NCBI GenBank assembly: GCA_037481775.1
Contig: JBBFKZ010000003.1
Coordinates: forward strand, 32,001 to 96,000
Direction of reading: 5' to 3'
Source: Candidatus Bathyarchaeia archaeon
GTDB taxonomy: Archaea > Thermoproteota > Bathyarchaeia > Bathyarchaeales > Bathycorpusculaceae
Length of the DNA stretch: 64,000 bases
Both the position numbers and the translations under genes were made by a program. Under the pieces are notes generated by a model. The model was not told the origin of the DNA. It ran no database searches and worked only from the letters and a program-made list of their open reading frames with translations. Positions 1-37,190 of this stretch are shown here, one piece after another (positions within the stretch are counted from its first letter, which is position 1; each line of letters starts with the position of its first letter).

Positions 1-1194
1 ACAGTGCGATGCTGGGCAATAAACCTGAAGCCTGGACTTAGAGGCCAAGTAATATTCGACAAGACATGGACGCCGCCATCCGATTGGAATGATGGTTCTC
101 ACACGCTGCACTTCGTAGGAGCAACCAACAATGTTGCGAAAGGTGTCATAGCAATTTGGGACAAAGAATTAAGGCGGCACTACGGCTTCAGCGTGGAAAC
201 TGGCAACTTCATGTGGCAGACAGAAAGCGAAATCTGGCTTGACGCTTATGGCTGGGGCAATGCTGAGCACACGTGGTACTTCGCTTACGGCAAACTATAC
301 TCAGTCGGCGTCGGCGGCATCCTATACGCCTATGATGACCAAACAGGAAAGACAGTATGGACTTACCCGTTAGACGATAAATACGGTGAGCCTGTCACAG
401 GCAATAACTGGTGGGGCTGGATAACGCTTATAGCAGACGGCAAACTCTACGTAGGCCACCTCGAGCACTCTGCTGAGCAGCCTCTGCCTCGTGGCGCGCC
501 GTTCGTGTGCTTGGATGCTGATACTGGCGATGTGATTTGGCGCGTAAACGGCATGTTCCGCGCTACCAGGTGGGGTGGCAACGCTGTTATCGGCGACAGC
601 ATCATCGCCACCATGGACACATATGACCAGCGAGTATACGCCATCGGCAAGGGTCCCACAGCCGTTTCAGTTTCAGCTTCCCCCGACATTGCAGTGCACG
701 GCAGCAAGATCCTCGTAAAGGGCTCAGTCATCGATATTTCACCTGGCACAAAAGACCCAATTTTGGCTATGCGTTTCCCGAATGGCGTGCCCGCTGTTGC
801 TGATGAGTCGATGAGCGACTGGATGCTGTACGTGTATAAGCAGTTTGAGTGCCCCGCGAACGTTAAGGGCGTTGAGGTTGTTGTTGAGGTGCTTGATCCT
901 AACAACAACTACTATGAAGTAGGCAGAACCACAACAGACGGCTCAGGCTTCTACAAACTAACCTTCGAACCACCAGTCCCTGGCGAATACACTGTCATCG
1001 CACGGTTCACTGGCTCTAAGGCGTATTATGGCTCTTACGCCAAAACCGCAGTGTTCGTGGAAGAAGCACCGCCAGCGTCACCTGCATCTACGCCACCGCC
1101 TCAAGCGCCTGTCGAAACCTACTTCGCCATCTCCACAATCGCCATAATCGTTGCTATTGCCGTTGTCGGCGTCTTGCTGTTGAAGAGAAAGTAA
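1..1194 (+). CDS. PQQ-like beta-propeller surface protein, C-terminal part (5' end outside window)
   Basis: Beta-propeller repeats (YAYDDQTGKTVW, CLDADTGDVIW), RFPNGVPA..DE.MS.WM.Y motif, Ig-like domain, Pro-rich linker and C-terminal TM + KRK. Paralog of 5208-7823. Confidence 0.85.
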   Translation, partial: TVRCWAINLKPGLRGQVIFDKTWTPPSDWNDGSHTLHFVGATNNVAKGVIAIWDKELRRHYGFSVETGNFMWQTESEIWLDAYGWGNAEHTWYFAYGKLYSVGVGGILYAYDDQTGKTVWTYPLDDKYGEPVTGNNWWGWITLIADGKLYVGHLEHSAEQPLPRGAPFVCLDADTGDVIWRVNGMFRATRWGGNAVIGDSIIATMDTYDQRVYAIGKGPTAVSVSASPDIAVHGSKILVKGSVIDISPGTKDPILAMRFPNGVPAVADESMSDWMLYVYKQFECPANVKGVEVVVEVLDPNNNYYEVGRTTTDGSGFYKLTFEPPVPGEYTVIARFTGSKAYYGSYAKTAVFVEEAPPASPASTPPPQAPVETYFAISTIAIIVAIAVVGVLLLKRK

Positions 1195-1217
1195 TAGCCA
1201 AAACCTCGCAGTCTAAT

Positions 1218-1238
1218 TTCCCCCATTTTTCCTTTTTG
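1218..1238 (+). terminator. C/T-rich archaeal-type terminator
   Basis: TTTCCCCCATTTTTCCTTTTT just after the stop; a similar CCCC-T tract follows the paralog at 7847-7860. Confidence 0.5.
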
Positions 1239-1368
1239 GAGAATGCAATGCTTATTCAAATTGAAGCAGGGGTCAATTAGGCCTGTTTTTTAATTTCTGC
1301 GTCATTAGCTAGAACGCGTGGGCAGAAGCTCTTTATTGTTGAATGTGTTAATTAATTGTGATGCTGAA

Positions 1369-2292
1369 ATGAGGAAGATAGTGTTAGTAAGCATCATCTT
1401 TATTTTGTTGCTTTCCGTTTCAGCACCGATCGAGCGGGCCGTTTTTCATACGGTTGACGCCAATTTTGTTCCCGGCATACCCTTCATCCGTATTATTTCG
1501 CCAGCAAACAAAACCTACAACACGGATTTGATCCCGCTGAATATATCGATCAGCACGTTCTTTGACTTTTACGGCAATCTCAGAATAGTTGAATATAGTC
1601 TTGACGGAAAAGAAAACGTTACCATAAGCACGGAGTATCAAGGCTTGGGCGAAGACTACTATTCAACAGTGACAGGCTTCGCGCAGTTGCCTGCGCTGTC
1701 TGAGGGAACGCATACAATAGCAGTTTATGCGACTTACCGGTTTCCAGATTACGGCGAATATACCACGTCAGATAGCAAAACCGTTACTTTCACGATCGAT
1801 TTTGCTTCGCCCTACATTACAATTCTTTCGCCTAGAAACTCTGCAAGATACAACACGACCGATGTACCGCTGATTTTCACGGTTGATAGATCCTTTTCAA
1901 CTCTGAGTTACTGCTTGGATAGTAACGCAAACATCTTCATGGAAGGAAACACTACACTAACCGGTTTGCCAGTGGGACTGCATAAACTTGTCGTTTACGC
2001 TACTAATGCAGAAGGCGCTACTGGGATTTCAGAAACTGTTTCCTTCGAGATAGGCGAGGAATTCGCGCCGCCTTCACCGTCACCCTCGCTTACTCCATCA
2101 TTCTCACCTGAAGTTAAGCCCACGGCTGCTCCCGCTGTGACTCCAACATCAACTGCCCCTTCAGAGCCGCTCCCATTAAATCTACTCGCCGCTTCTGTAT
2201 TTACCCTGATTATAGTTGTTTTAGGTCTTAGTTTCAAGAAAATTCGAAAAAAGAATAGAGCTGCTTCCCCCTCATTCACTTCTAAAAACTAG
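1369..2292 (+). CDS. Secreted Ig-like repeat protein with C-terminal membrane anchor
   Basis: Signal peptide (MRKIVLVSIIFILLLS), two I.I.SP.N..YNT...YSLDG..N...L..G.H repeats, Pro/Ser linker, TM and basic tail. ATG 1369 preferred over 1318. Confidence 0.75.
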   Translation: MRKIVLVSIIFILLLSVSAPIERAVFHTVDANFVPGIPFIRIISPANKTYNTDLIPLNISISTFFDFYGNLRIVEYSLDGKENVTISTEYQGLGEDYYSTVTGFAQLPALSEGTHTIAVYATYRFPDYGEYTTSDSKTVTFTIDFASPYITILSPRNSARYNTTDVPLIFTVDRSFSTLSYCLDSNANIFMEGNTTLTGLPVGLHKLVVYATNAEGATGISETVSFEIGEEFAPPSPSPSLTPSFSPEVKPTAAPAVTPTSTAPSEPLPLNLLAASVFTLIIVVLGLSFKKIRKKNRAASPSFTSKN

Positions 2293-2358
2293 CATTTGCG
2301 GATCATTTTAAAGACGGCAAAATCAGACAATTTAAGCAATAATGTGCAATTTTATATT

Positions 2359-2442
2359 GGTTCAATTTAGGCGGGCGGGTTGAGATTTGCATCCTCTGGC
2401 GTGGAGAAATTACCCGCAAATTCTCTTTTTCTATTTTTTAGA
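2359..2442. repeat. att-like repeat A (degenerate tRNA-Arg 3' end plus conserved arms)
   Basis: Core 2372-2389 CGGGCGGGTTGAGATTTG matches 44811-44828 at 16/18. Left GGTTCAATTTAGG and right GCGTGGAGAAATTACCCGCAAA are shared with repeat B. Confidence 0.8.
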
Positions 2443-3618
2443 TTATTTGTTAATTTTTTGGCGTTTTATAAGCAGGATCGCAACAAGTGTAACGAACATT
2501 AATGATGGAAGGATAAACCACGCTGCCGGAAACTCTGAGACGTAAGTAATCGCATAGAGGGCTTGCCAATAACTCCAGATTGCTTTTTCAGTACCATTTT
2601 TGTATTTTAATCCGACAAAATCATTGGGCACAGCTTTGGAATCTGTCTCTTCCTCTACCGTGCGAATGTCATGTAAGCATAACCAGTTGACAATTTCCAG
2701 AGGCATATTTCTTGTGTTTTCCAGAAACCAGAGCAGAAACTCAACTTGTTCTTGTTCAGATCCACCTCTTAACAGCGCAGAACTAGTCCATCCTATCTCA
2801 CTGAAAGCAATTGGCTTATCTCCTGTGTAGTTCATTATGCACGTGTAATAGTCAGACGGCATGTCGCCTGGTTTTTCGTACCGTGCGGGTCCTGGATAAC
2901 CAAGCATATACGGGTATGACGTGAAGCCAAAAAGGTCGATTTTGTCTTTGTTGAACTTTTCTATTAAGAACCACCCGTTATAGGAATCGATTGTATCAAG
3001 TCTAAAAACTATGAAGACTTTGGTTTCTGGAGACACCGCCTTTATTCCATCGTAGGTTTCGTTTACCAAGCTGACGTAATTATCGAAGTCTTCTTGGCTG
3101 CAGTTCCAGTAGTATGTGTCTACTTCATTCCCTATACAGAAGTATCTTGGATGATAATCTCGAGAAATGTTGACGGCTTGCTCGATCCACAGCTGGCGAA
3201 GTTCAGGGGTTCCAAGGTTTGTCGTGATAGAGTTCATGTAAGAGGGGACTTGCAAAATTACTTTCCCGTTTTCTATGGTCCAGAAATTCAGTTCAAATAT
3301 GGGCGTCAGACCGCTTGAGTTTATTAGCCATAAAAGCCCTTGTGTCTGAGGCTTTTTCAAATGTTCAGTTGTATTGTACCATGGTACATTTGCAAACCAA
3401 AGATTCATAACATCTGCAACCGAACCAGCTATGTTATATACTTCAAAAGTTTCATTCAAATTGATTGTGGGCGTGGGGGTTACACCGATTAAAAAGTTTC
3501 TGGAAGTTATGGGAAGAGAAGCCCCTTCACATTTCGCCTTTTTAACAGTAGTTGTATTAACCAAGCTTGCGACAGAAAACAAGAAAATTAGGATGAAAGA
3601 CATAACCTTGTATTTCAT
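2443..3618 (-). CDS. Surface-anchored clan GH-A-like glycoside hydrolase
   Basis: Signal peptide MKYKVMSFILIFLFS, IGNEVD acid/base and FSEIGW nucleophile motifs, C-terminal SEFP+TM+KR (PEF-CTERM-like). The ORF-track start at 3756 runs through the att repeat. Confidence 0.75.
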   Translation of the reverse strand: MKYKVMSFILIFLFSVASLVNTTTVKKAKCEGASLPITSRNFLIGVTPTPTINLNETFEVYNIAGSVADVMNLWFANVPWYNTTEHLKKPQTQGLLWLINSSGLTPIFELNFWTIENGKVILQVPSYMNSITTNLGTPELRQLWIEQAVNISRDYHPRYFCIGNEVDTYYWNCSQEDFDNYVSLVNETYDGIKAVSPETKVFIVFRLDTIDSYNGWFLIEKFNKDKIDLFGFTSYPYMLGYPGPARYEKPGDMPSDYYTCIMNYTGDKPIAFSEIGWTSSALLRGGSEQEQVEFLLWFLENTRNMPLEIVNWLCLHDIRTVEEETDSKAVPNDFVGLKYKNGTEKAIWSYWQALYAITYVSEFPAAWFILPSLMFVTLVAILLIKRQKINK

Positions 3619-3722
3619 GTGACTCTTTCCAACAAGTTGTATAGAGTTTTGTGCATTTAAAAGGTAGACACCGAAGCCTAACACTGAACCATCATCCAAA
3701 CTTCGATACTTCACTGGTGTGA

Positions 3723-3808
3723 AGTTCAACGTAGGCGGGCGGGGTGGGATTTGCACTCGCTGCAGCGTGGAGAAAACACCCGCAAAAACCCCTCTTTTTT
3801 TATTCTAG
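3723..3808. repeat. att-like repeat B; candidate attL of the provirus
   Basis: 3736-3753 CGGGCGGGGTGGGATTTG is identical (18/18) to tRNA-Arg 3' end 44811-44828 in the same orientation. Confidence 0.85.
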
Positions 3809-3891
3809 AAATGGGAATACGATTTGTGAAACAGATAAAATCAAACTTTTTAGAGAACGCAAGTAAAAGCGATGGTATTTCACGCCATTTA

Positions 3892-3965
3892 TGGTGCATT
3901 CGCCGGGATTTGAACCCGAAACAGCAACGGATGGAGATATCCCGCAAAATCCTCCTTTATCTTTT
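3892..3965 (-). repeat. att-like repeat D: 3' end of a different tRNA (Gly-like) plus the same right arm
   Basis: Reverse complement of 3892-3918 is CGGGTTCAAATCCCGGCGAATGCACCA (T-arm, acceptor strand, CCA). It is followed by TGGAGATATCCCGCAAAA as in repeats A and B. Confidence 0.75.
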
Positions 3966-4275
3966 GCCGTTTCTTTTAGCAGCGACTAACAGAAGGTGAT
4001 ACCTAAATTTTCATGATTACTTTACATGGCGTTAACAGAAGAGGAATCGCCGTAAACGTTATTGTCCATCAAATTGTTCCTCGCCACACTGCCCAAGCAA
4101 GCCCAATCACCCTTTATTCGATGAAATGACGCTTCCAGCAGCCCCGGCGCCGAGAAAACCTGATATGCATACAGCCACGGTTGCATGTTACGTAAAAAGA
4201 TTCTACATAGGCACCTGCAAACTTGAACAGCGTGGAAGGCATCTTTCACAAGCGCAAATCCATTTAATTTCCAGC

Positions 4276-5127
4276 TTAACGCTGACCCAGCATTCGCCAT
4301 TTAGTTTCGAAGTAATCTCTCATCAAAGCCACAAACTCCGGCGCATCAGACCATAAAACAGGGCTATCCAGAGAAGCACCTATCCTGCAGAACACCTCCT
4401 TTCCATCAACCAGCAGCACACACGCCTGCTGACCCGACCGCGCAAACCTAACCGCAAAACATCTGCTACTGCACAACTCGGGATGAAGACGAAGCTCCAT
4501 GTCTTCTACGCCATTAATTATAAATTTGAACTGGACCCCGCGCTTCACAGCATCTCGCCAGACGCCCTCATCTAAATCCCTTATCTGGCAGAAAAGACGC
4601 GCAGTAGTAAGGCACATAACACTCTTCTTTGAATCCGCAACCGCCCTGCCCAGCTTATACACCGATTTTGACGGGTCAGTTTCGTTTTTAGCAAGCAGCC
4701 TGAAACCCGCTGAGCTGGGCGCCGCGCCGCCTGCGGCTTGGCAGTCAACTTCAAAGTTTCTAAACTGCGCTGCTGCCTCCTTCTCCAGCTGCGCCATTTC
4801 GCTCTCTTTCCTTTTGAGCAGAAGCTGCAGGGTTGACTGTACGGGGATCGCGTGGAAGGTTGCTGGTTTGGCAAGTGTTTTCTCGACCAGGCCGTCTTCT
4901 TGAAGCTCGGAAAGCGCTTGGTAGACGGGCTGCCGCGGCTTCTTCAGCTGTTTGCAGAGGCTTTTTTCGTCTGAGTCTTGATGGATCAGCAAGGCTAGGT
5001 ACACCTTGGCTTTTATGCTGGATAGGCCGAGCTTTGTTAAAATTTTCACGGGCTCCTCGGGGATCAAGGGTGGCTCTTCCTTTATTATGGAGTGCTCATT
5101 AAGCAGCTTATTTTTGTCTGTCATCAT
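4276..5127 (-). CDS. TrmB-family transcriptional regulator
   Basis: LTKLGLS..KAKVYLALL..RQPVYQALSELQEDGLVEK wHTH and a C-terminal PLD-like effector domain (LLVDGKEV). Confidence 0.85.
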   Translation of the reverse strand: MMTDKNKLLNEHSIIKEEPPLIPEEPVKILTKLGLSSIKAKVYLALLIHQDSDEKSLCKQLKKPRQPVYQALSELQEDGLVEKTLAKPATFHAIPVQSTLQLLLKRKESEMAQLEKEAAAQFRNFEVDCQAAGGAAPSSAGFRLLAKNETDPSKSVYKLGRAVADSKKSVMCLTTARLFCQIRDLDEGVWRDAVKRGVQFKFIINGVEDMELRLHPELCSSRCFAVRFARSGQQACVLLVDGKEVFCRIGASLDSPVLWSDAPEFVALMRDYFETKWRMLGQR

Positions 5128-5142
5128 TCAGCGTTGATGACA
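5119..5142. promoter_or_regulatory. Palindromic operator candidate TGTCATCA-N8-TGATGACA
   Basis: Perfect 8-bp inverted repeat over the TrmB start codon in the divergent intergenic region. Confidence 0.55.
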
Positions 5143-5207
5143 CAGTTTTATTAGAGTCATATCTCATAATTATGTTTTGCGTAAAATAATGAAAGGAGAA
5201 AAGGAAG

Positions 5208-7823
5208 ATGAACAAAAACAAACAAACTGTAATTGTTTTGATTCTGATGTCAATAATGGCTGTTATGCTTGTTGCTTTGCCTCTGGCTAACGCGCACACG
5301 CCGCCATTGCAAATTCCTACATATGCCTACATCAATGTCGCACCTAACCCCGTCGGCGTAGGTCAACAAGTTGCTGTCACAGGCTGGATTGATAAGGTGC
5401 CGCCGGGCGCGTCAGGACCATGGGGCACCCGATGGTACAACATGAAAGTGACAGTCACGAAGCCTGACGGAAGCACCGAAGAACTCGGGCCTTTCACCTC
5501 AGACTCGGTGGGTGGCATTTGGACATGGTATACGCCTACTCAGGTCGGTACATACAAATTTGTGCTTACCTTCCCTGGTCAAGTGGCAAAGGTAGAGAAT
5601 CCAATACCTCCAGGCTATAATCCTATAGTACCTTTGGGAACCCAATTTATCAACGACACATATTTGCCGAGTACTAGTGAACCTTTCTATCTTACGGTGC
5701 AGCAGGAGCCTATAGAGTCGAAGTATCCGCCTAATCCGTTGCCAACTGAATACTGGTCAAGACCGATAAATTCGATGAACAGAGAATGGTACTTGATTGG
5801 CGGCAACTGGCTCGGGCTCGGCGCAACATCATTCGGCACAACTGGCATGTACTCCAGTAAGGACAACTTCGCGCCCTACACTACAGCGCCTAATAGTGCT
5901 CATGTTCTATGGACGGAGCCAATTGCTTTCGGAGGCCAAATAGGAGGCGAGCATGGTCCAGACGAGACAAGCCTTTACGCCACTGGCACGGCTTACGAAG
6001 CCAAATTCAATGCGGTAATACTTTACGGGATACTTTATTACACGGAGTATCCTGGCGCTGGCAACAATCCTGCGGGTTTGAAGGCTGTTGATTTGCGTAC
6101 TGGTGAGACGGTTTGGGAGAAGCCTGTTACTACGCCTTTGCGGGTTGGCATGATCTATAACTTCATTACTGGCGATCAGTATGGTGCGCATGCGTACTTG
6201 TTCTGTGCTCCTGCGACGGTAGGTTTTGTGCCTTATCCGCCGGGCAACACCTGGGAGATGTATGATGCAATGACTGGCGATTGGATATTGAACATTGCTA
6301 ATGCGAGTGCTGGCACGCTTGTGCGTGGCCCGATGGGGGAAATTTTAAGCTATACTCTTGCTGGTGGTATGTTGCGTATGTGGAACATGAGCAAATGCAT
6401 TGCTGAAGGACAACGAAAATACGTTTACAGTTTGATATACACGCCTGAGGAGATTTGGCGGCCGCCAAAAGGAGCGACAATCGACTGGAACGGCGGCTAT
6501 CAATGGAGTGTTCCTGTCGCAACTACTCTTGACGGCAAGCCAATTTCTCCGCCTCTAGCAATTACTGCGATTTCTGACGATGTAGTGCTTATGACTGGTA
6601 TAGAAGGTTTGTATACTGGAGGAGCCCCTGGAGGTGCCTCTTCAGGTTATATGGTACAAGCAGGTTACAGTGCAATCGACGGACGACTACTGTGGGGACC
6701 AGTAAACAGAACATTCGAAGCGTGGACCACTAAAAATATTAATCGATTTCCTGGAGCTTTGGGTGATGGCGTTTATGCCGTATACACTCTGCAGACGTTT
6801 TCATGGGAAGCATATGACATAAAGACTGGCAATAAACTTTGGGGTCCAAAAAGGGTCTTCAACAGTAGCTGGGCATACTACGATTACACAGGTCCAGGAG
6901 TTATTGGCTATGGCAATCTTTACACGTGGGGATTAAGTGGTGAAGTATACTGCCTTGACGCTAAGACAGGTGAAATTAAGTGGAACTTTAATACCGGAAG
7001 CTCAGGCGTCGACAGCCCATTCGGCTCTTGGCCTCTTGGTACATGGTGGAGTCATTATGTTCTCGCTGATGGCAAACTGTATGTGCGGGCTGGACACGAC
7101 TATACGCCGCCAGTGTTCAAAGGTGCGAAGATTTACTGTTTAAATGCGTCTACGGGAAAGTTGATTTGGAGTTCGTTAAGCTTTGATATTGTGGGTTCGC
7201 CTGCTGTGGCTGATGGCATTATGGTTTGGTTCAATGGCTATGATAATCAGATTTATGCTTACGGTAAGGGTCCAAGCAAAACTACTGTGGCTGCGTCTCC
7301 GAAGGTTACGGTGCATGGCGGCAAGGTGCTTGTTGAGGGTATGGTCACTGATGAGTCTCCTGGTGCGAAGAAGTATGCGCAGACTGCTAGGTTCCCGAAT
7401 GGTGTTCCAGCGATAGCGGATGAGGACATGAGTGCTTGGATGGAGTATTTGTATCAGCAGCAGCCGAAGCCTGTGAATGCGAAGGGCGTTGAAGTGACTG
7501 TTACTGTGCTTGATCCGAATGGTAACTGTTATGATGTGGCTAAGGCTACGAGCGACGTGAACGGCTTTTACAGCGCGACGTTTGAGCCGCCTGTTCCTGG
7601 CAAGTACACTGTTATCGCCACGTTCACCGGTTCAGAATCCTACTACGGGTCTGTTGCGGAAACTGCTGTGTTCGTTGAGGAAGCGCCTCCGCCTACTCCT
7701 GAGCCTACGTCGATGCCTGCGTCAGCGGCTGACCTCTACTTGGTTCCGGGAATAATTGGCATAATCGTCGCAATTGCAGTAGTCGGCGCTATCATAGTGC
7801 TGATGCTGAGGAAGCGGCCGTAA
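5208..7823 (+). CDS. PQQ-like beta-propeller surface protein
   Basis: Signal peptide, Ig-like N-terminus (PNPVGVGQ), many D..TG...W propeller repeats, RFPNGVPA motif, C-terminal TM + RKR. Confidence 0.88.
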   Translation: MNKNKQTVIVLILMSIMAVMLVALPLANAHTPPLQIPTYAYINVAPNPVGVGQQVAVTGWIDKVPPGASGPWGTRWYNMKVTVTKPDGSTEELGPFTSDSVGGIWTWYTPTQVGTYKFVLTFPGQVAKVENPIPPGYNPIVPLGTQFINDTYLPSTSEPFYLTVQQEPIESKYPPNPLPTEYWSRPINSMNREWYLIGGNWLGLGATSFGTTGMYSSKDNFAPYTTAPNSAHVLWTEPIAFGGQIGGEHGPDETSLYATGTAYEAKFNAVILYGILYYTEYPGAGNNPAGLKAVDLRTGETVWEKPVTTPLRVGMIYNFITGDQYGAHAYLFCAPATVGFVPYPPGNTWEMYDAMTGDWILNIANASAGTLVRGPMGEILSYTLAGGMLRMWNMSKCIAEGQRKYVYSLIYTPEEIWRPPKGATIDWNGGYQWSVPVATTLDGKPISPPLAITAISDDVVLMTGIEGLYTGGAPGGASSGYMVQAGYSAIDGRLLWGPVNRTFEAWTTKNINRFPGALGDGVYAVYTLQTFSWEAYDIKTGNKLWGPKRVFNSSWAYYDYTGPGVIGYGNLYTWGLSGEVYCLDAKTGEIKWNFNTGSSGVDSPFGSWPLGTWWSHYVLADGKLYVRAGHDYTPPVFKGAKIYCLNASTGKLIWSSLSFDIVGSPAVADGIMVWFNGYDNQIYAYGKGPSKTTVAASPKVTVHGGKVLVEGMVTDESPGAKKYAQTARFPNGVPAIADEDMSAWMEYLYQQQPKPVNAKGVEVTVTVLDPNGNCYDVAKATSDVNGFYSATFEPPVPGKYTVIATFTGSESYYGSVAETAVFVEEAPPPTPEPTSMPASAADLYLVPGIIGIIVAIAVVGAIIVLMLRKRP

Positions 7824-7846
7824 AGGTGCAGTCAACAAAACTTCAC

Positions 7847-7860
7847 TTCCCCCTTTTTTT
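7847..7860 (+). terminator. C/T-rich terminator
   Basis: TTCCCCC followed by a T-run downstream of the stop. Confidence 0.5.
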
Positions 7861-8024
7861 GGGCGTTCAAAGTCAGCTAAGCTCGACGGAGAATAGAACT
7901 GCGGGCTGAATGGGCTTTGGGCTTAAAATGGCGATTGCAGCAGCAGATTGCCATTTTTCTCTTCTCCTTTAGGTTTGGCGCCCAAGGCCCCAGCAAACCC
8001 ATGTTTAGTAATGTTTAACTGAAG

Positions 8025-9473
8025 TTAGGTGTTTTTCCAGAAAAGGTAACCTTTCGTCTGTAGAAGAAAACCGCATACCTTTATTAAGCGTGCAAGCCTT
8101 TCAAGGCTGGCTTTCACCGCTTCTTCTGCGTATGCTTGCTTTTTCCCGAAGGGCATGTGGCAGAAAAAGTATTTCATAAACCGTGCGTGGCAATATTTAA
8201 CAAACGCCTCTCTTATCAACTGTATCTGTTCAGGGCTTAGGCTTTGCAGCTTGCCATAAACGTATTTCTCGCTGCCTAACAATTGAATGTTGAAGCTGAG
8301 CCGCCGAAGAGTTTCAGCTATGGCTAAGGCTTCTTTTGGAGGAGGCTGCTCGGCTATTTTTCGCATTCCAGCCTTTTCCGCGAAAGGGTTGTATTTCGCC
8401 ATGACTGCTGGCATTTCCACATAGGGCGTTCCAGCAAGGGATAGAGTTTCCTTTACAAGCTTAACGCCTAAACCTATAGCGCGGTATTTTGGATGCACGA
8501 CTACACGGCTTATAGTGCTCACTTTCTCGTTTAGCTCTTTCATACCCATTTTAGGCAGAACAAGCCTTCTTCCGAAACATGTTGGTGGCGGATACGCGTA
8601 AACGATTACTCCGCAAAGCTCGTCGCCACGTTTAAGGCTGAAGATTCTGCGAGGCGCAGCTATTTTGTGGCTGCGGTAATGGAAGCCCGCCAGCCTACGC
8701 CAGTCTTCTGTTGTGCCCTGTTCTACTCGCATTTCTTTGACGAGGCTGCATTCTTTAGCCGACTGATTGGGGTAATAGCGGATATCTATTTCTTTGCCGA
8801 ATTTTTTATAGATATAAACTGAAGGGTTAAGGTCCTCAAATAAGTCAGTATGCGTTGTCGCTGCTAGAACAGCTTTGCCCTGCTGCCTCGCCAGCTTCTG
8901 AAGATTGTAAGCCACGATTTTAGCGGTGTCCCTGTCCAATGTTGCCGCAAACTCGTCCAAAATCCAAAACTGCGCTTGGTTTTCTATCATTTTGGCGATT
9001 TTATATCTGTATTTTTGTCCGTCGCTCAGCTGCTCATAACTCCTTAGGAACAGGAATGCGTCGTTCAGGCCTACTCTGCTGAGAAGCTCAAGTGCTTCCT
9101 CAAGACTTTTGCCAACAGTTTCGATTAAAGGCTTGTTTGGTTCAGGCTTGATGTCTGCTATGTTTATGCATTTTAAGCCTAAATCTTGGCGAATATCCTT
9201 CTCCAAAGCCTTGAGCAGAACGGATTTGCCTGAGCCGCTGTCGCCCGTGATGTAGACAATGTCTGTTGGCCCTATCTTCAGCTCTGCGTTGTCGTAGATT
9301 ACGAATTTTTGCCACTGGTCAAGGCCGAGGCCGAAGGCTTCAGCTACGCCTACAACTCTTTCCGTCGGTTCCAGTGCAGCGGTTTCATAGGCTATGTTTA
9401 TGGTGAATTTGCCGGTTTTGCGGTCGTATTTTCTGCTGACTTGACGTATGCGGAAAAATTCTCGGGTTTTCAA
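8025..9473 (-). CDS. ABC-type ATPase fused to GNAT acetyltransferase (COG2401-like)
   Basis: Walker A GDSGSGKS, signature LSDGQK, Walker B ILDEF, H-loop TTH, GNAT motif ISRVVVHPKYRAIGLG. Confidence 0.85.
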   Translation of the reverse strand: MKTREFFRIRQVSRKYDRKTGKFTINIAYETAALEPTERVVGVAEAFGLGLDQWQKFVIYDNAELKIGPTDIVYITGDSGSGKSVLLKALEKDIRQDLGLKCINIADIKPEPNKPLIETVGKSLEEALELLSRVGLNDAFLFLRSYEQLSDGQKYRYKIAKMIENQAQFWILDEFAATLDRDTAKIVAYNLQKLARQQGKAVLAATTHTDLFEDLNPSVYIYKKFGKEIDIRYYPNQSAKECSLVKEMRVEQGTTEDWRRLAGFHYRSHKIAAPRRIFSLKRGDELCGVIVYAYPPPTCFGRRLVLPKMGMKELNEKVSTISRVVVHPKYRAIGLGVKLVKETLSLAGTPYVEMPAVMAKYNPFAEKAGMRKIAEQPPPKEALAIAETLRRLSFNIQLLGSEKYVYGKLQSLSPEQIQLIREAFVKYCHARFMKYFFCHMPFGKKQAYAEEAVKASLERLARLIKVCGFLLQTKGYLFWKNT

Positions 9474-9498
9474 GATGGTCTACGGGCTCCTCGTTTGG

Positions 9499-10170
9499 TT
9501 ATGCGAATGTGAATGTTAATCGCCATTCAACGGTTAATGGCACGCTTGGGTTCACTTGGAAAGCGGTGAAGTCTCCGTCCGCCGCGCTCAATCGGCTGAA
9601 GAGGGCTGTGGCTGCGCCATTAAAGCCTGTCCAGCCGAAGCTCTGCAAGGCTGTCTGCAAATAGAGGTATAGGCCTATTTCTGAAACTGTTATGGCGGTT
9701 AGGGTTCCAGCGTTCCATGTGGCTGTCCAGGCGACGCGGTATGTTCCGCCTCCCGGTGAGCTGGTGGCGCCTGACTGGCTGTCTGGCGGCGTTGAAACAG
9801 GCGTGGTTAGCCCAGTCGTGGTTCCTTGGGTTATGTTGCCTCCTGTGCCCAGCCGCATGTAGCTGTAGGTTTTGCCTGTCCAATCACGGGAAAACAGGTA
9901 GTACGGTCCTGAGCTGCCTGTCTGCGAGGCTGCAAGCGCGTTTATCATGTGGATTAGGCCTTGGTTGACTATGTGTCCTTTGCTTGCAAACTTTAGTTTT
10001 TTGTTTTTGCCTTCGCCCTCATAGACTAATACTTCGTCGGTGACTTTGACTATGTCGCCGAAAGTGTTGCGGCGCTTCAGCAGATCCTTCAGCTTCTGTT
10101 TGGAAAGGCAGATTTGCCGTTTCAAAGCATTGTATTCCACCAATGTCAAAGGTCTTTTTGGCATGTTCAT
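9499..10170 (-). CDS. Putative virion tail/baseplate protein
   Basis: End of the tail operon; Gly/Thr-rich beta protein with ITVSEIGL and LTVEWRLTF motifs resembling tail-fibre/baseplate N-domains. Confidence 0.5.
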   Translation of the reverse strand: MNMPKRPLTLVEYNALKRQICLSKQKLKDLLKRRNTFGDIVKVTDEVLVYEGEGKNKKLKFASKGHIVNQGLIHMINALAASQTGSSGPYYLFSRDWTGKTYSYMRLGTGGNITQGTTTGLTTPVSTPPDSQSGATSSPGGGTYRVAWTATWNAGTLTAITVSEIGLYLYLQTALQSFGWTGFNGAATALFSRLSAADGDFTAFQVNPSVPLTVEWRLTFTFA

Positions 10171-10194
10171 TTTGGCGTTTTCACCTCCCCTTTT

Positions 10195-10446
10195 TTAGCT
10201 GTTTGTGATTGTCCAGGACTCGGAAAGGCTGGGTGTGTCGTCTCCTGTTTTTCCAGTGCCGAGAAGCACCGTTTCCGACCACGCTGGAACATCTTCGAAC
10301 TTTGACGTGTCGCCTAAAACGATCTGTTCTTGAGGCGTTGGCTTGTCGCCTATGCTTCCGCGCATGTAAGCTATGAAGCCGCCTTCCTGTCCCATGTTCC
10401 AGCTGTTGGCTTTTCCCTCAAATCCTCTCACAACTTCAACGGGCAT
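10195..10446 (-). CDS. Hypothetical viral protein
   Basis: Tightly packed in the operon with a GGTGA SD. Confidence 0.6.
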   Translation of the reverse strand: MPVEVVRGFEGKANSWNMGQEGGFIAYMRGSIGDKPTPQEQIVLGDTSKFEDVPAWSETVLLGTGKTGDDTPSLSESWTITNS

Positions 10447-10456
10447 GGTGTCACCT

Positions 10457-12559
10457 TCACGTGTTCATAATTGCCAGATCCTCTTGCAGGCTTGGAGCGT
10501 CTTCTCCAGCGATGTTTTCGTTCATGCTGTAGGCGTGTGTTTCAAGGTAGAGGCAGGTTTCGCCGATTTGTTTTCCTCCGCCATGGTTTAGGTAAACGGA
10601 TTCAACCATGCTGAATTCAAGCTGGCGCCTTTCGCTTATCAGCCAAGCCATGGGCCAACTGTTACTGTAAACCTGATCTTCACAGCGGCTCAGCTCAACA
10701 GGGTTGAAGAAAATGGCGTCTGCCACAAGCATCTGCTCATTGGCGGGTAGAAAGCCATTAGTAATATCCGTTAAAACAAAGCCGTATGGCTCTTCTTGTG
10801 GCTCTTCTGTTTCGCCTGGGCCAACAGCGGGAATGCTGTACGCAGCTTCATGATAGGCGACGAGGGCGTCTGCCAGCTTGAAGCCCCTGTCCTGGAATAG
10901 AACGGTTGTTCTAACGCTTTTAGCTGAGAAGCTCCATTCGACGCTTTTAACTTCGCCGTTGTAATTGTTTAAGCCGACTTCAGTGTTGGTTATGCTTGCG
11001 ATGCAGTAAAGGTCTATGGGCACGATGTGCGGTGTTGTAAGCGCGATTTCCTTTTTCAGCTCCTTGTATTTTTGGAGCAAGCCTTCGGCTTTGGCTTGGG
11101 TAGCCGCTTGGCTGGACAGGCTGATGTCCCGGAAGGTTTTGTCTCTTCGCCAGTAGAGGCTTTCGCTTGACGCGTCATGCGCCGTGTACTCGTAGGGCAC
11201 GCCTGAAACGGTTTTGCCCACTTGGCGCACGTAGTTTATGACTTCGTCGATTTCGCGGTTGCTTATGCTTAGCTGGTCGCTTTTGCCCTTGAACGGTAAG
11301 CTGCTTACGCTGCGGGCTTGGCTAAGCGGAATGAAATAGACGTCTTTGTTATAGTCTACGCCCCAGACGTAGGCGTTTGCGTCTGCCAGTTCCTTTATTA
11401 TTTTTGCTACGCTTACGGCGTGGTATTCTGCGCTTGTGGTTACGCCGTCTGCCACGTTGTCAGCTGTGAACACGTCTTCAAAATAGGTTTCTATGAGGTC
11501 TTTAACTATGCTGCCGCATTTTTTGTTTATGTAAATCTTGTTGTAGGCTTCTCGGAAATCCAGCCTTTTCGCGTAGCCGCTGCTGCTTTCCACTTTAAGC
11601 CTTGAAGGCGGATAAGTGCGCTCAGGCGCCTCAATATAGCCTCTGAAAAGCAGGTAAAGCACCGCTTCGGTTCCAGCCCTTATCTCAATTTCGGTTTTCA
11701 CGCCCAGCTCAGCGTATTTGTTTCCCTCGTTCCGCAGCGTCAGCGAAGCCTGAGGGTGGCTGCCGTCACGCAGCGTTACCTTGAAGTCGATTACGTCGTC
11801 GGTTATGACGCGTTTAACCGTGCCAGTTACAGCCGTGACAACTGCCTTGGCTTTGCGGGATTGGTTTCCGAAGACATAGAAGCCCCTAACGTAAAACTCG
11901 ATTGAGCCTGACGCTTGTGCCATGGCGCTTAAGCAGCAGCGCAGCGTTCCTGAGAGGCTTTGGTCGCACCAGTCGCTAACCTGCCAGACTGTCATGCCGT
12001 TTGAAGCCTGCCTGATTGTTAAGGCTATGTTGAGTTTGCGGGTGTCCGCCGTGTAAGGCGTTACTTCCATCTCGATTAGGTATTCGGTGCCTAAGCTCCA
12101 TGTAGCGTCTGAAGTATGCGTCTTAGGCGCGTAGTCTTGGCTTAAGGCCAGTTTAAACTTGTAGTCGTCTGCTGTGCCGCTGACTATGGCGACCCACATG
12201 CCGTAAATGCTTGTGCCCAAAAAGTGTCCGTCACGCACGTCAGGCGACATGAGGTAAAGGTAAAAGCCGTAGTCCGTAGGCTTTACGGCTACTCGGGTTT
12301 TGAAGGGCACTTTGAACTCGGCTCGGCTCATGAGGTTGACGCCGCCCCAGCCGTTGCTGTCCACGGCAGCAGCGAACAGGCAGCCCTCTTCAGTGGGCGT
12401 TATCACTGCGGTGGAAAACTGTACGCTTGGGTTTTCCCGAGTGTAGAACATGGACCATTTGCCCCTGTCAGGCGGGTAGTCTCCAGAGCCCGTGAACGCG
12501 TCTTTGAAGAGCAGGTTCTTGTATTTCGCCACTTTACTCGTAGCCTCCCATGTCGTCAA
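10457..12559 (-). CDS. Baseplate hub/tail protein with N-terminal lectin-like domain
   Basis: Central hub-like region (LFRGYIE..GSIVKDLI..IIKELADANAYVWGVDYNKDVYF), position after Dit-like and tape measure genes. Confidence 0.65.
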   Translation of the reverse strand: MTTWEATSKVAKYKNLLFKDAFTGSGDYPPDRGKWSMFYTRENPSVQFSTAVITPTEEGCLFAAAVDSNGWGGVNLMSRAEFKVPFKTRVAVKPTDYGFYLYLMSPDVRDGHFLGTSIYGMWVAIVSGTADDYKFKLALSQDYAPKTHTSDATWSLGTEYLIEMEVTPYTADTRKLNIALTIRQASNGMTVWQVSDWCDQSLSGTLRCCLSAMAQASGSIEFYVRGFYVFGNQSRKAKAVVTAVTGTVKRVITDDVIDFKVTLRDGSHPQASLTLRNEGNKYAELGVKTEIEIRAGTEAVLYLLFRGYIEAPERTYPPSRLKVESSSGYAKRLDFREAYNKIYINKKCGSIVKDLIETYFEDVFTADNVADGVTTSAEYHAVSVAKIIKELADANAYVWGVDYNKDVYFIPLSQARSVSSLPFKGKSDQLSISNREIDEVINYVRQVGKTVSGVPYEYTAHDASSESLYWRRDKTFRDISLSSQAATQAKAEGLLQKYKELKKEIALTTPHIVPIDLYCIASITNTEVGLNNYNGEVKSVEWSFSAKSVRTTVLFQDRGFKLADALVAYHEAAYSIPAVGPGETEEPQEEPYGFVLTDITNGFLPANEQMLVADAIFFNPVELSRCEDQVYSNSWPMAWLISERRQLEFSMVESVYLNHGGGKQIGETCLYLETHAYSMNENIAGEDAPSLQEDLAIMNT

Positions 12560-13343
12560 CTGCGAAAAAGTAGCTCCGCGCCTGATTCTTGGTGATGGCG
12601 AATTTGATTTTGCTCAGCTGGCTCCAGTCAACCGCGTCGTAGTCTGCGAATTGGGTTTTGTGGATGCGGATTCTACGCCACTCATCAGCCGCAGCCAACT
12701 CAGCTATAAAATCATAATAAGCTTCGTTCTCGCCTTCTTGGACGGTTACAACCGCGCTGCTGATGGCTGCGACATCGTTTATCAGGAAGGCGAAGCTTAT
12801 CCAGTCAAAGTCTTCAAGGTTGAATGTGTCCACAGGCTCATAAGCCACGTTTAATTCTTCGTCTGCTTCGGCGTCGTGGCTGACTTTAAGGCAGCCTCTA
12901 CCCTCGAAAGGCAATGGCTGGCTTTCGGCTATAGTTACAGACGCGCCTTCCGTGGCGGTGAACCAGCTTGTTATGGCGTCGCATGCGTTAACCTGTTTGA
13001 ACATGCTTTCTTTTAGCGTGAGGCTGTAGCGGAGAAAGTTGAAGCCTGTTTTGGCGAGTTTTACTTCTCGTATGAAAACTACTGTTTGCGCCACGTCACA
13101 GTCCATTTTTAGGCTTTGTCCAAGCTGGCAGACGCGTTGTAGCTGTCTGAAATCGTTGAATCTTGAAGGCCCTGTCAGAACTCCTGAAAGCTGTATTTCT
13201 GTTGCGTGTTCGCCGAGGTCTTGGGTGCTGCTGCCTCTTGCAGCTGGCAAATCCACGTCTTCAAACCGTTTAGAGTTGGAAAAGTTGAAGTCGGCTACTA
13301 TGCCAAGGTTTAGGTTGCCAAGCGTTACAGTCAAAGCTTTCAC
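12534..13343 (-). CDS. Distal tail (Dit/DNA_circ_N-like) protein with C-terminal carbohydrate-binding-like domain
   Basis: DLPAARGSSTQDLGEHATEIQLSG motif; C-terminal DFDWISF..WRRIRI..F..DWSQLSKIKF resembles CBM11-like domains; follows the tape measure gene. Confidence 0.6.
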   Translation of the reverse strand: MKALTVTLGNLNLGIVADFNFSNSKRFEDVDLPAARGSSTQDLGEHATEIQLSGVLTGPSRFNDFRQLQRVCQLGQSLKMDCDVAQTVVFIREVKLAKTGFNFLRYSLTLKESMFKQVNACDAITSWFTATEGASVTIAESQPLPFEGRGCLKVSHDAEADEELNVAYEPVDTFNLEDFDWISFAFLINDVAAISSAVVTVQEGENEAYYDFIAELAAADEWRRIRIHKTQFADYDAVDWSQLSKIKFAITKNQARSYFFAVDDMGGYE

Positions 13344-15025
13344 CTTGCCACAAAGAACGTTTGCGCCCGCAAGTCGCGTCGGACAATTGCGCTTAGCTCG
13401 TTGTAAACTGCCTCTGCGAACTCGCGTGGGTCCTGCGGCGCTATGCTGCCTTCTGGAAAGTTGAATGTGGGCGCTAAAACAAGTGTTTGGCTGCCTGCAG
13501 GTGTGGATCCAACTGCTGCTGGGTTTGGGCCTAAAGCTGGAGCCTTTAATTCTGCTCCGAAGCTTTTAATGGTGCCATAAGCGGTGTTCATGGCTTCTTC
13601 CACGGCGTCGTTGAAAACTGAGAGGCTTTTCCTGCTGGATTCCACTGCGTTTCCAATTGCATGAGCGAAACACACTTTGCCGATGAAGCTGCTTATGCTG
13701 TTCCAGGCATCGCTCATGGCGCCGCCGACGTTGCTTGCGAAATTGTTTAGGGCGTTTCCAGCAGAGTTTACAGCATTTCCAACTGCGCTTGCTATTCCGC
13801 CTGCAGCGTTCTTGATAGTGTTGACTGCTCCGCTGACGGTGTTGACTATGCTGTTCCAGATTTTTCCAGCTGTGTCAGCTAAACCTGAAAAGAAGCCGCC
13901 TATGGTGTTGCAGAAGTCTTTCACCGTGCCTATAAGCGGAGCCACAACCGTGTTCCAAACGCTTACTATGCCCTTGCAAAGGTCTGTCCAGACGCTTCCG
14001 CCGACCAGCCATCCGAACAGGGCTTTGAAGGCGCCGTAAACCGTGTCGCAGAACCATTTAACCGCGTCTACTATTGGCTTGATGAAGGTATTCCAAGCCC
14101 AGCTTACGCCGCTGCATATAGCGTTCCAAACGTCGCCCAACGCCTTAGTGACGTCGCTCCAGTGTTGAATTAGATAGGCTATTGTTGTTATGGGGCCGAA
14201 AAGCGCCGCCAATATAGGGTTGCTCGTGATAGTGTCCCAGAGGGTTTTCAAGACGCCTATGAAAGGCTGCACAACGTTTTGCCAAAGCCAAGTTAAAGCG
14301 CCTACTACAGCGTCAATTGCTGGCTTAAAAAAGTTGTAAATTGCTTGCCCAATAGCGTTTATCGCGTTGCGGAAGGGCTCGCAAGTCTGGTATGCGGTTA
14401 TTAGGGCTCCAACGACAAGACCAATAGCCATAACCACAGCCATCAACGGGTTTGCCGCCAAAAACGCTGTAGCCGAGTTAACAAGGTTTACGGCGCCATG
14501 AAAGTTTTGGAAAACCTTTACTCCACTGTCAACCATTGTTATAACGGTTGGAATGACGGTTAAGGCGCTTTGCACCATAGCCTCGTTCAGGTTTCCCTGA
14601 ATCATGCTGGCGCGTTCAACCGCCACCTGATACCTTTCTTGGGCGACTGTGAGGTCTGCTGCTGCAGCCCGTGCCTGTTCGCTGTCGACGCCATATTTTT
14701 CTACGGCAGCGTTATACCGGCGTTGAGCATCTTCCAAAGCGTTTAGGCTTGTTTTAACTTGCAGGTTTGCCCTGTCAACGCTGACTTGCATGTCGGCTAC
14801 GCGGTCGTAAGCGTTGTAGAGGGCGAAGGCGCCTGTGGCTAATCCGCTGAAGCCTGTTACGAGGCTTCTGACGCTTGCGTTGGTTTTTTCCTGTTCCGCT
14901 GTTACAGTCTTGTTTGCCTCTTCCACTTGCCTCATGCTTTCGGTTATCTGTTTGCCAGCTTCCGCTACGGTTTTGCTTGCCTCATCTGTGGCTCGCAATA
15001 CAACGTTTACGTTTATTTCGCTCAT
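13340..15025 (-). CDS. Tail tape measure protein
   Basis: INVVLRATDEAS start, Ala-rich coiled coil, repeated W-spaced amphipathic segments. Confidence 0.88.
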   Translation of the reverse strand: MSEINVNVVLRATDEASKTVAEAGKQITESMRQVEEANKTVTAEQEKTNASVRSLVTGFSGLATGAFALYNAYDRVADMQVSVDRANLQVKTSLNALEDAQRRYNAAVEKYGVDSEQARAAAADLTVAQERYQVAVERASMIQGNLNEAMVQSALTVIPTVITMVDSGVKVFQNFHGAVNLVNSATAFLAANPLMAVVMAIGLVVGALITAYQTCEPFRNAINAIGQAIYNFFKPAIDAVVGALTWLWQNVVQPFIGVLKTLWDTITSNPILAALFGPITTIAYLIQHWSDVTKALGDVWNAICSGVSWAWNTFIKPIVDAVKWFCDTVYGAFKALFGWLVGGSVWTDLCKGIVSVWNTVVAPLIGTVKDFCNTIGGFFSGLADTAGKIWNSIVNTVSGAVNTIKNAAGGIASAVGNAVNSAGNALNNFASNVGGAMSDAWNSISSFIGKVCFAHAIGNAVESSRKSLSVFNDAVEEAMNTAYGTIKSFGAELKAPALGPNPAAVGSTPAGSQTLVLAPTFNFPEGSIAPQDPREFAEAVYNELSAIVRRDLRAQTFFVAR

Positions 15026-15551
15026 TCACTTTTGCCTCTTGCCCATTCCAGCCAAGCAGCCAAGAAGCCTATTTGGAAAGGCGTTAAACCTGCGATGTAT
15101 TCAAGCGGGTAGCCGTATTCATGGGCTATCAAGCCAATGAGTTGGGCTTCACTGTTGGCGTCGATCCATTCTATGGCGGAGTCTGCTGTTGGGCTAAAAA
15201 ACGCGGAAACACCTGTGACAGGCGAGTGGCAAGTATGGCTTTTACGTGGAAAGGTAAAGCTTCAAATTCTTCCCAGGAAAGGTCTGGCTCTGCTTTCCGC
15301 AGCATGGCATGGATTACGCGGTAAAACTTCTCCTCATTGTCTTCAACGGTTTCAAGATTTAAGGCTTTAAACTCTTTCCACGTTAAGAGCCCATACCTGA
15401 TCTCGCCAAGCTCCTGGTCGTATATTGTGTGGATTTTGCGTGTGTCTTCAGCCAATGCTTTAGGATCGAAACGCTTCGCTTTCTCTGCCTTTTCCGCTTC
15501 GTAGGCTTCAAGCTGCCGCCTGTACTCGGCGATTTTGCCCTGTTCAGCCAA
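15022..15551 (-). CDS. Tail assembly chaperone, long (GT) form via -1 frameshift
   Basis: Slippery T TTT TTA (15201-15195); the -1 frame is open to TGA at 15022 and encodes IAHEYGYPLEYIAGLTPFQIGFL. Confidence 0.75.
15171..15551 (-). CDS. Tail assembly chaperone (G form)
   Basis: Acidic 126-aa ORF between tail tube and tape measure genes. Confidence 0.75.
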   Translation of the reverse strand: MAEQGKIAEYRRQLEAYEAEKAEKAKRFDPKALAEDTRKIHTIYDQELGEIRYGLLTWKEFKALNLETVEDNEEKFYRVIHAMLRKAEPDLSWEEFEALPFHVKAILATRLSQVFPRFLAQQQTPP

Positions 15552-15574
15552 AGCTAACCAGCCCCCTTTTCTGG

Positions 15575-15979
15575 CTATCCTTGTTCTTCTATGGTTTCGA
15601 GCAGCAGGTCGTCGCCTTCGCCTTCCATGCTCTGCATAACTACGCCTGTAGGCTTCTGGTCAAGCTTCCACTTGGTGAAAATCACGTTTTTCACTGTTAT
15701 CTTCGGGTTTCCAGCAACATCGCCAGCAGGGTCCAGCTCAATGTCCACAGGGCTTCCAGCTTTAACGGTTTCCGCGTAAGCGTTGTCCACGTACATGGCT
15801 TCAATGCTGACCTTGTAGCTTTGGTTTCCAATAGCCAAAAACGCGGGTTTCTCGCTGTTTAACGCGTATTCCTTGATCAAGTCTATGTCAATGTTTATGC
15901 CTACGCCTTTAGCGTAGCCAATTTCCGTTTCGCCTTTCTTAACTACGCCTTTTCTGCCCAACACCGGCGTTGAACTCAA
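15575..15979 (-). CDS. Major tail tube protein
   Basis: Beta-rich 134 aa (EIGYAKGVGINID..SMEGEG), canonical position. Confidence 0.7.
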   Translation of the reverse strand: MSSTPVLGRKGVVKKGETEIGYAKGVGINIDIDLIKEYALNSEKPAFLAIGNQSYKVSIEAMYVDNAYAETVKAGSPVDIELDPAGDVAGNPKITVKNVIFTKWKLDQKPTGVVMQSMEGEGDDLLLETIEEQG

Positions 15980-30034: not shown

Positions 30035-30173
30035 AGTGCTTTTCAGCCTCCGCTTTGGTTTCACGCAAAACTTGACGGATTACGTCTTGCATGCTTCGAG
30101 CCTTCCGCCTTTTCAGTTCTTTCAAGAGCCACTCGTAAAGCTCAGAATCAACGCTCTGCTGGAAAATAGGCAC
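30027..30173 (-). CDS. Small ribbon-helix-helix protein (48 aa), below ORF-track cutoff
   Basis: MPIFQQSVDSELYEWLLKELKRRKARSMQDVIRQVLRETKAEAEKHYG; GGTG SD; stop overlaps the portal start. Confidence 0.65.
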   Translation of the reverse strand: MPIFQQSVDSELYEWLLKELKRRKARSMQDVIRQVLRETKAEAEKHYG

Positions 30174-31245: not shown

Positions 31246-31265
31246 TCTTCCCTCGAGATTTTTGT

Positions 31266-33005: not shown

Positions 33006-33009
33006 TTCA

Positions 33010-36126: not shown

Positions 36127-36216
36127 CCTTAAACCTCAAGTGAGTTATTGTGACCGATACCTATTTAAGCTTGAGGGTTTAAGTGAATTATTTAGTCATG
36201 ACTAAAAAAGTCACAA

Positions 36217-37185: not shown

Positions 37186-37190
37186 AATGA

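Follow-up and report, generated by a model that had tools for sequence, protein, structure and literature searches.

In streptococci, integrative and conjugative elements (ICEs) and integrative and mobilizable elements (IMEs) integrate, decay to cis-mobilizable elements (CIMEs) that are flanked by attachment (att) sites and lack an integrase, and are followed by new integration at attR (PMC5704250). In archaea, one site can be re-used by elements with tyrosine recombinases, which thereby form arrays (PMC6563490), and the classical type II integrases stay intact on integration (PMC8371274). The viruses and proviruses of Bathyarchaeia have been catalogued (PMC10848311, PMC11705971, PMC13573593); an analysis of att sites was not met in the parts of PMC10848311 covered. 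In this study, we analysed a stretch of 64,000 nt (the window; positions 32,001 to 96,000 of contig JBBFKZ010000003.1) from a metagenome-assembled genome (MAG; GCA_037481775.1, 1.82 Mb in 54 contigs) of a Candidatus Bathyarchaeia archaeon. Our results make it probable that window positions 2372-44809 consist of two elements stacked in tandem at the 3' end of a tRNA-Arg(CCT) gene, both from one Bathyarchaeia-wide tyrosine integrase family, and that tandem accretion was followed by decay of the older element to a CIME-like unit. The locus resembles ICESt1 and ICESt3 of Streptococcus thermophilus (PMC5704250) in that an integrase-less, att-flanked unit stands in tandem with an intact element at a tRNA 3' end, with a chimeric junction between them, and the same three-step origin fits here. 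It differs from that model in its archaeal host, in having a head-tail provirus instead of a conjugative element as the partner, and in the single 1.2-kb gene of its reduced unit; any mobilization of this unit in cis or in trans is putative. The features that define the stack are listed below.

2359-2440, plus strand: site A, outer attL-type unit (nhmmer 2371-2437, E 4.9e-16)
2443-3618, minus strand: cargo gene of the A-B unit, glycosidase-like, 391 aa (Pfam PF07745, E 2.1e-5; PDB 6gpa_A, E 5e-4)
3723-3805, plus strand: site B, hybrid junction (nhmmer 3735-3804, E 4.7e-21)
3816-3866, plus strand: integrase pseudogene remnant, the last 16 codons and stop, NTICETDKIKLFRERK* (C-terminal hidden Markov model (HMM), E 0.023)
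3880-3965, plus strand: site C, fossil attP-like unit (nhmmer 3905-3964, E 1.2e-7)
43580-44767, plus strand: tyrosine integrase, 395 aa, intact (PF00589, E 5.3e-22, residues 200-352; N-terminal zinc ribbon)
44789-44828, plus strand: attR (read from the sequence, the core match and the family-wide pattern)
44810-44886, minus strand: tRNA-Arg(CCT), the target gene, intact (ARAGORN; Rfam RF00005, 63.9 bits)

The tRNA-Arg(CCT) gene is the single tRNA called in the window by ARAGORN and Rfam. A core of 17 nt, GGGCGGGGTGGGATTTG, lies within it at 44812-44828 and recurs without mismatch at 3737-3753 and with two mismatches (15/17) at 2373-2389. The three copies are direct repeats, all on the plus strand, and stand at both ends of each unit. 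Among 100 dinucleotide-preserving shuffles of the window, the mean number of core matches was 0.00 and none reached three. At sites A and B the core is followed 11-12 nt later by the right arm GCGTGGAGAAANNACCCGCAAA and then by a T-rich tail; in the window this arm is present only at 2399-2420 and 3765-3786, and none of the 100 shuffles reached two copies. A repeat search grouped A, B and attR into a single family of 39 nt, the other two copies being 82% and 69% identical to A, and extended the arm similarity between A and B to 40 nt at 75%. Thus, the three copies of the tRNA end with their left arms, and the right arm shared by A and B, were all recovered as the preliminary description of this DNA had reported them.

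Site A consists of the left arm GGTTCAATTTAGG, the core with two mismatches, and the conserved arm with its T-run (2399-2438). The order in attR is the tRNA end as a direct copy (GCGGGCGGGG), the left arm GGTTCAGCGTAAA, and the core within the tRNA gene. Site B joins an element-type left arm, AGTTCAACGTAGG, to a perfect core and to the arm and T-run of the provirus, so that the GTTCA left arm seen in attR is found on one side and the family arm on the other. The earlier view that the junctions are no simple attL is borne out at B, where element-type sequence lies on both sides, and this hybrid junction supports the serial use of one tRNA. Further copies had been anticipated to the left of the window. 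However, a whole-MAG profile search found core plus arm only at A, B and C and none further on the contig; the arm was seen twice more, on contigs C6 and C14, next to different cores.

The extent of the insertion is given by an empty site in a genome of the same genus (G005, locus L021). The homologue of window 1-2170 occupies positions 3390-5533 there (79% identical), and the tRNA-Arg(CCT) gene follows only 175 nt further on, at 5709-5786, with the next tRNA behind it. Hence, relative to G005, window 2372-44809 corresponds to inserted DNA and site A to its outer boundary, and the host gene to the left of site A is syntenic with the empty site. In another genome of the genus (G001), an integrase C-terminus 87% identical to that of the window stands beside the same tRNA, at a contig end.

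The integrase next to attR belongs to a family of which we detected 440 relatives in assembled genome contigs. Eighty were kept as loci, all from uncultured archaeal MAGs that are nearly all labelled Candidatus Bathyarchaeota or Bathyarchaeia, and the att counts use the 71 loci with at least 150 nt after the gene. A convergent tRNA was found no more than 110 nt after the integrase in 49 of the 71 loci, with 13 anticodon types, and a co-oriented one in 3 (ARAGORN, without the intron option). In 28 of these 49 loci, the 28 nt immediately preceding the tRNA contained the motif GGTT[CT]/GGAT[CT], as compared with 89 of 980 random 28-mers, and 23 of the 49 carried in the spacer a copy of the terminal 9 nt of the tRNA with at most two mismatches. 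Both family features, the copy of the tRNA end and the left arm, are seen in the attR of the window.

The other half of the att layout is an arm of about 35 nt, GGAGAnnTCnCCCGCAAA followed by a T-run (consensus GGAGAnnTCnCCCGCAAAAyCCC), of which we found no description in the literature searched. The right arm of site B is matched at 75-85% over about 60 nt by numerous stretches of related genomes. When up to one mismatch was allowed, the strict motif GGAGANNTCNCCCGCAAA was found 198 times in the 61 related genomes, of which 47 carried it (0 to 23 copies per genome); the reversed control matched 10 times. On a viral contig from IMG/VR (L113), an integrase at 4001-5230 is followed 84 nt later by the arm (5314-5353), between HerA-like, Pol-beta-thumb and winged helix-turn-helix genes on one side and portal_3 and DUF2213 genes on the other; the latter pair is also present in the provirus of the window. 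Judging by its order, this arrangement is an undivided attP. Of two exact arm patterns searched in IMG/VR, one matched no contig and the other a single contig, which was L113. Moreover, elements of 1.7-21.6 kb that carry an integrase have the arm at their far end; this is the case at loci L080, L065 and L079 and on contig C6 of the MAG under study, where a full-length integrase at 7147-8358 lies 21.6 kb from an arm unit at 28658-28711. As the arm both follows the integrase in L113 and marks the far ends of elements, the arm at site B is best assigned to the attP of the provirus, and the left arm at B to the tail of the left-hand element. The elements at L065, L079 and L080 are mini-elements that measure 1.7-4.2 kb from arm to tRNA and hold the integrase with zero to two other genes. 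Another full-length integrase of the family in the MAG lies on contig C5 (59546-60667) and adjoins the 5' end of a tRNA-Phe gene.

These features can be set against two further described systems. As in the archaeal arrays of PMC6563490, a site is re-used, att cores are repeated and tRNA genes are preferred; in contrast, those arrays are built of whole elements of several kb or more, whereas the older element in the window retains a single gene and the family carries the conserved, widely distributed arm. The window integrase is also like the classical type II, pNOB8-like integrases of PMC8371274 in that the gene remains intact after integration and attP lies outside it, following the lambda paradigm: its stop codon is at 44767, 42 nt before the tRNA end. 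The likeness is one of layout, and the window integrase differs in its N-terminal zinc ribbon; its best NCBIfam match is archaeal XerA (90.2 against a cut-off of 220).

The segment between sites A and B comprises 1,297 nt and one gene. The encoded protein is weakly GH53-like (PF07745), and its translation, inspected by eye, shows a signal-like stretch at the N-terminus and a hydrophobic, anchor-like one at the C-terminus. The gene was not found in five genomes of the same genus, whereas its product is 76-81% identical in three other genera. In one genome (G009), the same gene (76% amino acid identity) has an integrase pseudogene 285 nt upstream, divergent from it. Two pieces of this pseudogene match the family HMM at positions 256-276 and 316-334, in the right order (E 0.028 and 2.3e-4), and are fused to an arm remnant. 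This order of arm, gene, integrase, left arm and core would be that expected for an ancestor of the A-B unit. Thus, G009 indirectly suggests that the A-B unit derives from an integrase-bearing element, and the unit would most simply be a decayed mini-element of this kind.

On the other side of site B, the pseudogene remnant at 3816-3866 matches the C-terminus of the integrase family (...KIFRKRK*). When the C-terminal HMM was run against 83,425 six-frame segments of the MAG, this remnant ranked directly below the true integrase C-termini. Site C follows after 26 nt. Its core resembles a tRNA-Gly(GCC) 3' end and is framed by a left flank and the same arm; the preliminary description gave the end coordinate of this site without describing it. 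Window 3888-3918, which includes part of this core, is 94% identical to a stretch of G003 where ARAGORN calls a tRNA-Gly(GCC) within the surrounding 301 bases, and the tRNA end of site C was found nowhere else in the MAG. The simplest reading is that the provirus contains, in the remnant and site C, a fossil integrase-attP module that was specific for tRNA-Gly; the virus may thus have changed its tRNA target by swapping such modules. Integrase debris next to arm units is also found elsewhere. C-terminal fragments abut units at L017, L019, L065, L130 and L134, the first three with a hybrid-junction layout as at B, and at least four further fragments are present in the MAG itself, among contigs C14, C19 and C3 (C3:137233-137421).

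The formation of the stack could then be described as follows. In attP, the integrase stop codon is followed by 30-60 nt with a GGTTC-type left arm, often including a copy of the last ~10 nt of the tRNA, then by the core, and then by the ~35-nt arm with its T-run. On integration, the integrase and the left arm remain at the tRNA (attR), and the core and the arm pass to the far end (attL). A mini-element with the glycosidase-like gene would have entered tRNA-Arg(CCT) first and would then have lost its integrase by deletion, leaving a CIME-like unit with att sites at both ends and no recombinase. Later, the 41-kb head-tail provirus would have entered the same tRNA-Arg, giving the segment from B to attR. 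Finally, the tRNA-Gly-type module would have been displaced when the present Arg-specific one was gained. The repeats, the empty site, the att layout of the family, the integrase debris and the intact provirus are shown by the sequences; we infer the order of the two integrations, the deletion of the integrase and the module swap.

Several observations weigh against this reconstruction. No integrase trace was found in A-B or its flanks, either by tblastn or with the family HMM in six frames, which requires a deletion whose end lies no more than ~100 nt from the left arm. The undivided attP that defines the layout comes from one viral contig. Site A is also ambiguous: compared by eye, its left arm fits the element-type arm (11/14 to B, 9/14 to attR) better than the flank of the empty site in G005, although it lies 67 nt from the syntenic host gene, and A may be a junction with a vanished third element. 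In addition, the glycosidase gene was detected in 25 metagenome loci, and in several lineages it follows a complete tRNA or a tRNA fragment, of six kinds in all, whose 3' end lies 115-191 nt before it with no integrase in between. These contexts are an Arg-type fragment in the window, Thr-CGT in the L144 lineage, Ser-GGA in the L161 lineage, Gln-CTG and Gly-TCC as read by eye at L148 and L154, and tRNA-Thr(TGT), 176 nt from the gene, in G023; at L145-L147 there are inserts of 0.74-1.05 kb between tRNA and fragment. They share only the open reading frame (ORF) with at most 122 nt upstream and at most 29 nt downstream, at 75-85% DNA identity, a distribution that would fit an integrase-less mobile form of the gene. 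The arrays of arm units in relatives point in the same direction. Of 32 inter-unit segments (median length 1.29 kb), 29 had no integrase trace and 3 had debris; these segments come from 22 fetched loci, 14 of which were chosen for near pairs and are hence uninformative on orientation. Within a single array the arm stays conserved throughout, while the cores resemble different tRNAs or are degenerate. Such regularity is not obviously predicted by random decay; trans-mobilized modules, integrase-mediated rearrangement or selection on the arm could each contribute to it. Another flank motif, GAGAATTTAAAC(C/G), is conserved in different genomes on the left side of several outer units and tRNA 3' fragments (L004, L006, L147 and L149) and may be the arm of another element family.

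The explanation that draws most on these points is a gene-capture array loaded in trans, in which circles with one gene, one att site and no integrase were inserted serially at tRNA ends by the integrase of the provirus or of another element, much like integron cassettes or mobilizable CIMEs. Besides the many segments without integrase, it would account for the co-oriented arrays of relatives, such as that at L009, which has six units scoring at least 23 and one weak match in 15 kb and shows no integrase match even at an HMM E-value of up to 10. Neighbouring strict-motif matches less than 10 kb apart, counted by hand among the 150 listed of 198, were on the same strand in 17 cases and on opposite strands in 1. 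The spread of the glycosidase gene over Thr(CGT), Thr(TGT), Ser(GGA), Gln(CTG), Gly(TCC) and Arg(CCT)-type ends, with homology confined nearly to the ORF, would follow as well. However, the window holds a single gene unit, its outer core has two mismatches, the same gene stands beside an integrase pseudogene in G009, and gene orientation relative to the units is mixed. Differing cores in one array are not predicted by serial insertion at one tRNA, and the DNA identity of the glycosidase copies shows no recent transfer. The order of genes and sites, taken up below, is invariant among the sequenced runs, and integron features are missing. Altogether, we consider loading in trans unlikely for this locus. 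The same doubt applies to the wider proposal of gene capture by tyrosine integrases in Bathyarchaeia, according to which one-gene modules, each with a tRNA-end-like core and the GGAGAnnTCnCCCGCAAAA arm, would be inserted, stacked and exchanged at tRNA genes without a recombinase of their own, A-B being one such module that proviral or mini-element integrases serve in trans; we mention it tentatively, as an improbable extension.

Two other accounts fare worse than loading in trans. The arm could be an independent functional sequence, for instance a terminator, a protein-binding site or the end of a small RNA, that neighbours tRNA fragments by chance, in which case the units would not be element ends. 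Its terminal T-run, its better conservation than that of the adjoining cores and its presence beside metabolic genes in relatives are in line with this. Yet a general signal would hardly vary between 0 and 23 copies per genome, with none in four of five congeners and one in the fifth. Each of the five arm units in the MAG has a tRNA-like or att-like core next to it, the integrase of L113 has the arm directly behind it, and the orientation of the arm to neighbouring genes is mixed. Neither does it match an Rfam family at the gathering score or fold better than shuffled sequences, and we judge this account very unlikely. As for a structured RNA element, only the tRNA matched in Rfam, the folds were no better than those of shuffles, and the GGAGA/TCTCC variants were not consistently compensated when compared by eye. 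Split-tRNA or tRNA-half units were ruled out, given the intact tRNA-Arg and an arm that does not change with the core. Still less credible is an origin of A and B by integrase-mediated rearrangement or duplication between att-like sites with no separate element inserted. There is precedent for integrase-driven rearrangements between tRNA genes in Thermococcales (PMC5495485), and the congeners G019 and G061 lose synteny within 20-60 nt of units. Homologues of the inter-unit segments of G019 stand on other G061 contigs, where units are lacking and the flanks are unrelated; the two genomes are too diverged and fragmented to separate insertion from rearrangement. At the present locus, on the contrary, A and B are only ~79-82% alike, the intervening gene was not found in the five genomes of the same genus, and G005 offers a clean empty site. 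Tandem accretion followed by decay thus remains our preferred explanation.

The preliminary description had gone further and proposed an integron-like cassette array. The parallels with integrons are short, co-oriented gene units between repeats that look like recombination sites, most of them lacking a recombinase in relatives. Here, however, the sites come from tRNA ends, the integrase lies 41 kb from A-B behind the provirus and points away from it, gene orientation is mixed, and neither an IntI-type integrase nor an attC-type hairpin was found. The window integrase scored 70.4 bits against a cut-off of 265 for TIGR02249 and 49.8 against 435 for NF011946. Folding of A and B as single-stranded DNA on both strands, and of C on the plus strand only, gave z values from -0.74 to +0.89, with 40-163 of 200 shuffles folding at least as well. 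The integron layout, with an integrase next to attI and a promoter into co-oriented cassettes, is absent as judged on positions and strands, and the cargo gene is antisense to the units. The proposal is therefore not supported: the window contains only one integrase-less gene unit, and further copies and integron features are lacking. Of the associated claim that the units between the sites have no integrase and carry surface proteins, the part that stands concerns A-B, which lacks an integrase and encodes a protein with signal- and anchor-like ends; it is the only gene unit, and the 100-nt interval between B and C is integrase debris.

A cassette array would also be expected to vary between strains. 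Contrary to this, the order ORF2-A-gene-B is identical in contigs from four runs of four studies, one of which is ~6% diverged. A joint between A and B, as in an excised or emptied form, was absent from four runs (X4-X7, compared with window 1-12000); only assembled contigs were compared, from which rare forms drop out. One contig of run X6 joins position 934 to 7562, within paralogous propeller genes, with 10 other letters at the joint; it skips 6,627 nt including A, B and C and represents a variant formed by recombination or deletion, or else a third paralogue located elsewhere. In run X5, a loose end at 3923 runs on into a different arm variant, probably a tRNA-Gly-type site of another organism. 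Altogether, the locus is best read as a genome scar of a type already documented in bacteria and archaea, a tandem accretion that includes a CIME-like remnant, and not as an integron.

The element from B to attR looks like an intact head-tail provirus of ~41 kb. Its main features are the following.

3806-44767: head-tail provirus body, ~41 kb (profile matches)
4276-5127: TrmB
5208-7823: propeller protein, 871 aa
8025-9473: ABC-ATPase/GNAT
10457-15979: tail genes, including the tail tube
19163-20554: large terminase (TerL)
23959-24843: HK97-type major capsid protein
24846-25355: cement protein
26596-27819: DUF2213
28592-30064: portal
30367-39550: DISARM class 2 (PADLOC models)

The DISARM (defence island system associated with restriction-modification) block has the composition that defines class 2, with DrmA, DrmB and DrmC together with a cytosine methylase. 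DrmA lies at 33010-36126 (E 0, 1032 bits), DrmB at 31266-33047 (1e-184) and DrmC at 30367-31245 (2.8e-61), and the C5 methylase at 38531-39550 matches DrmMII models down to 2.5e-74. Two ORFs at 36217-38525, between DrmA and the methylase, matched no PADLOC model, including DrmE. The GC content of the block is 0.38-0.42, as compared with ~0.46-0.52 around it.

Cassettes of this type had been put forward to explain the expansion of surface proteins in these archaea. Relatives do carry beta-helix/NosD surface proteins as array cargo, and units also flank mevalonate-decarboxylase-like, GMP-synthase-like, HAD and HtrA-like genes. Nevertheless, the strict arm motif is absent from four of the five same-genus genomes and present once in the fifth, and each of the five has dozens of matches to paralogues of the propeller protein. 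Units of this kind cannot cause the expansion, as the paralogues abound where the motif is absent or single. Downstream of the 871-aa propeller gene, a stretch of ~100 nt at window 7900-8000 has copies of 75-92% identity widely in same-genus genomes, several of them beside paralogous propeller genes, and may be a shared 3' element of the propeller family.

The surroundings of the target tRNA hold two further features. A probable tRNA-Leu(TAA), identified by eye at ~44985-45110 on the plus strand and divergent from tRNA-Arg, has an intron-like insert before the anticodon arm; it was not called here by ARAGORN or Rfam, and its counterpart was called by ARAGORN in the relatives L054, L067 and L069. 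To the right of this tRNA pair, a sequence of ~50 nt at window 45205-45270 has dozens of copies per genome in all five same-genus genomes, at 85-96% identity, and may be either a repeat of the MITE type or the conserved end of a gene.

To our knowledge, there is no cultured virus-host system for Bathyarchaeia. The present analysis gives the full att layout, with left arm, tRNA-end core and conserved arm, for a very common integrase family of these archaea, and the arm motif offers a simple flag for the ends of its elements. It also provides evidence consistent with swaps of integrase-attP modules between tRNA specificities and describes an apparently intact head-tail provirus of Bathyarchaeia that carries DISARM. 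Should the integrase-poor arrays of relatives be active, they would offer an archaeal route for the shuffling of single genes; and if gene capture of the kind considered above were true, these archaea would possess a functional counterpart of integron cassettes or CIME arrays whose sites are drawn from tRNA ends.

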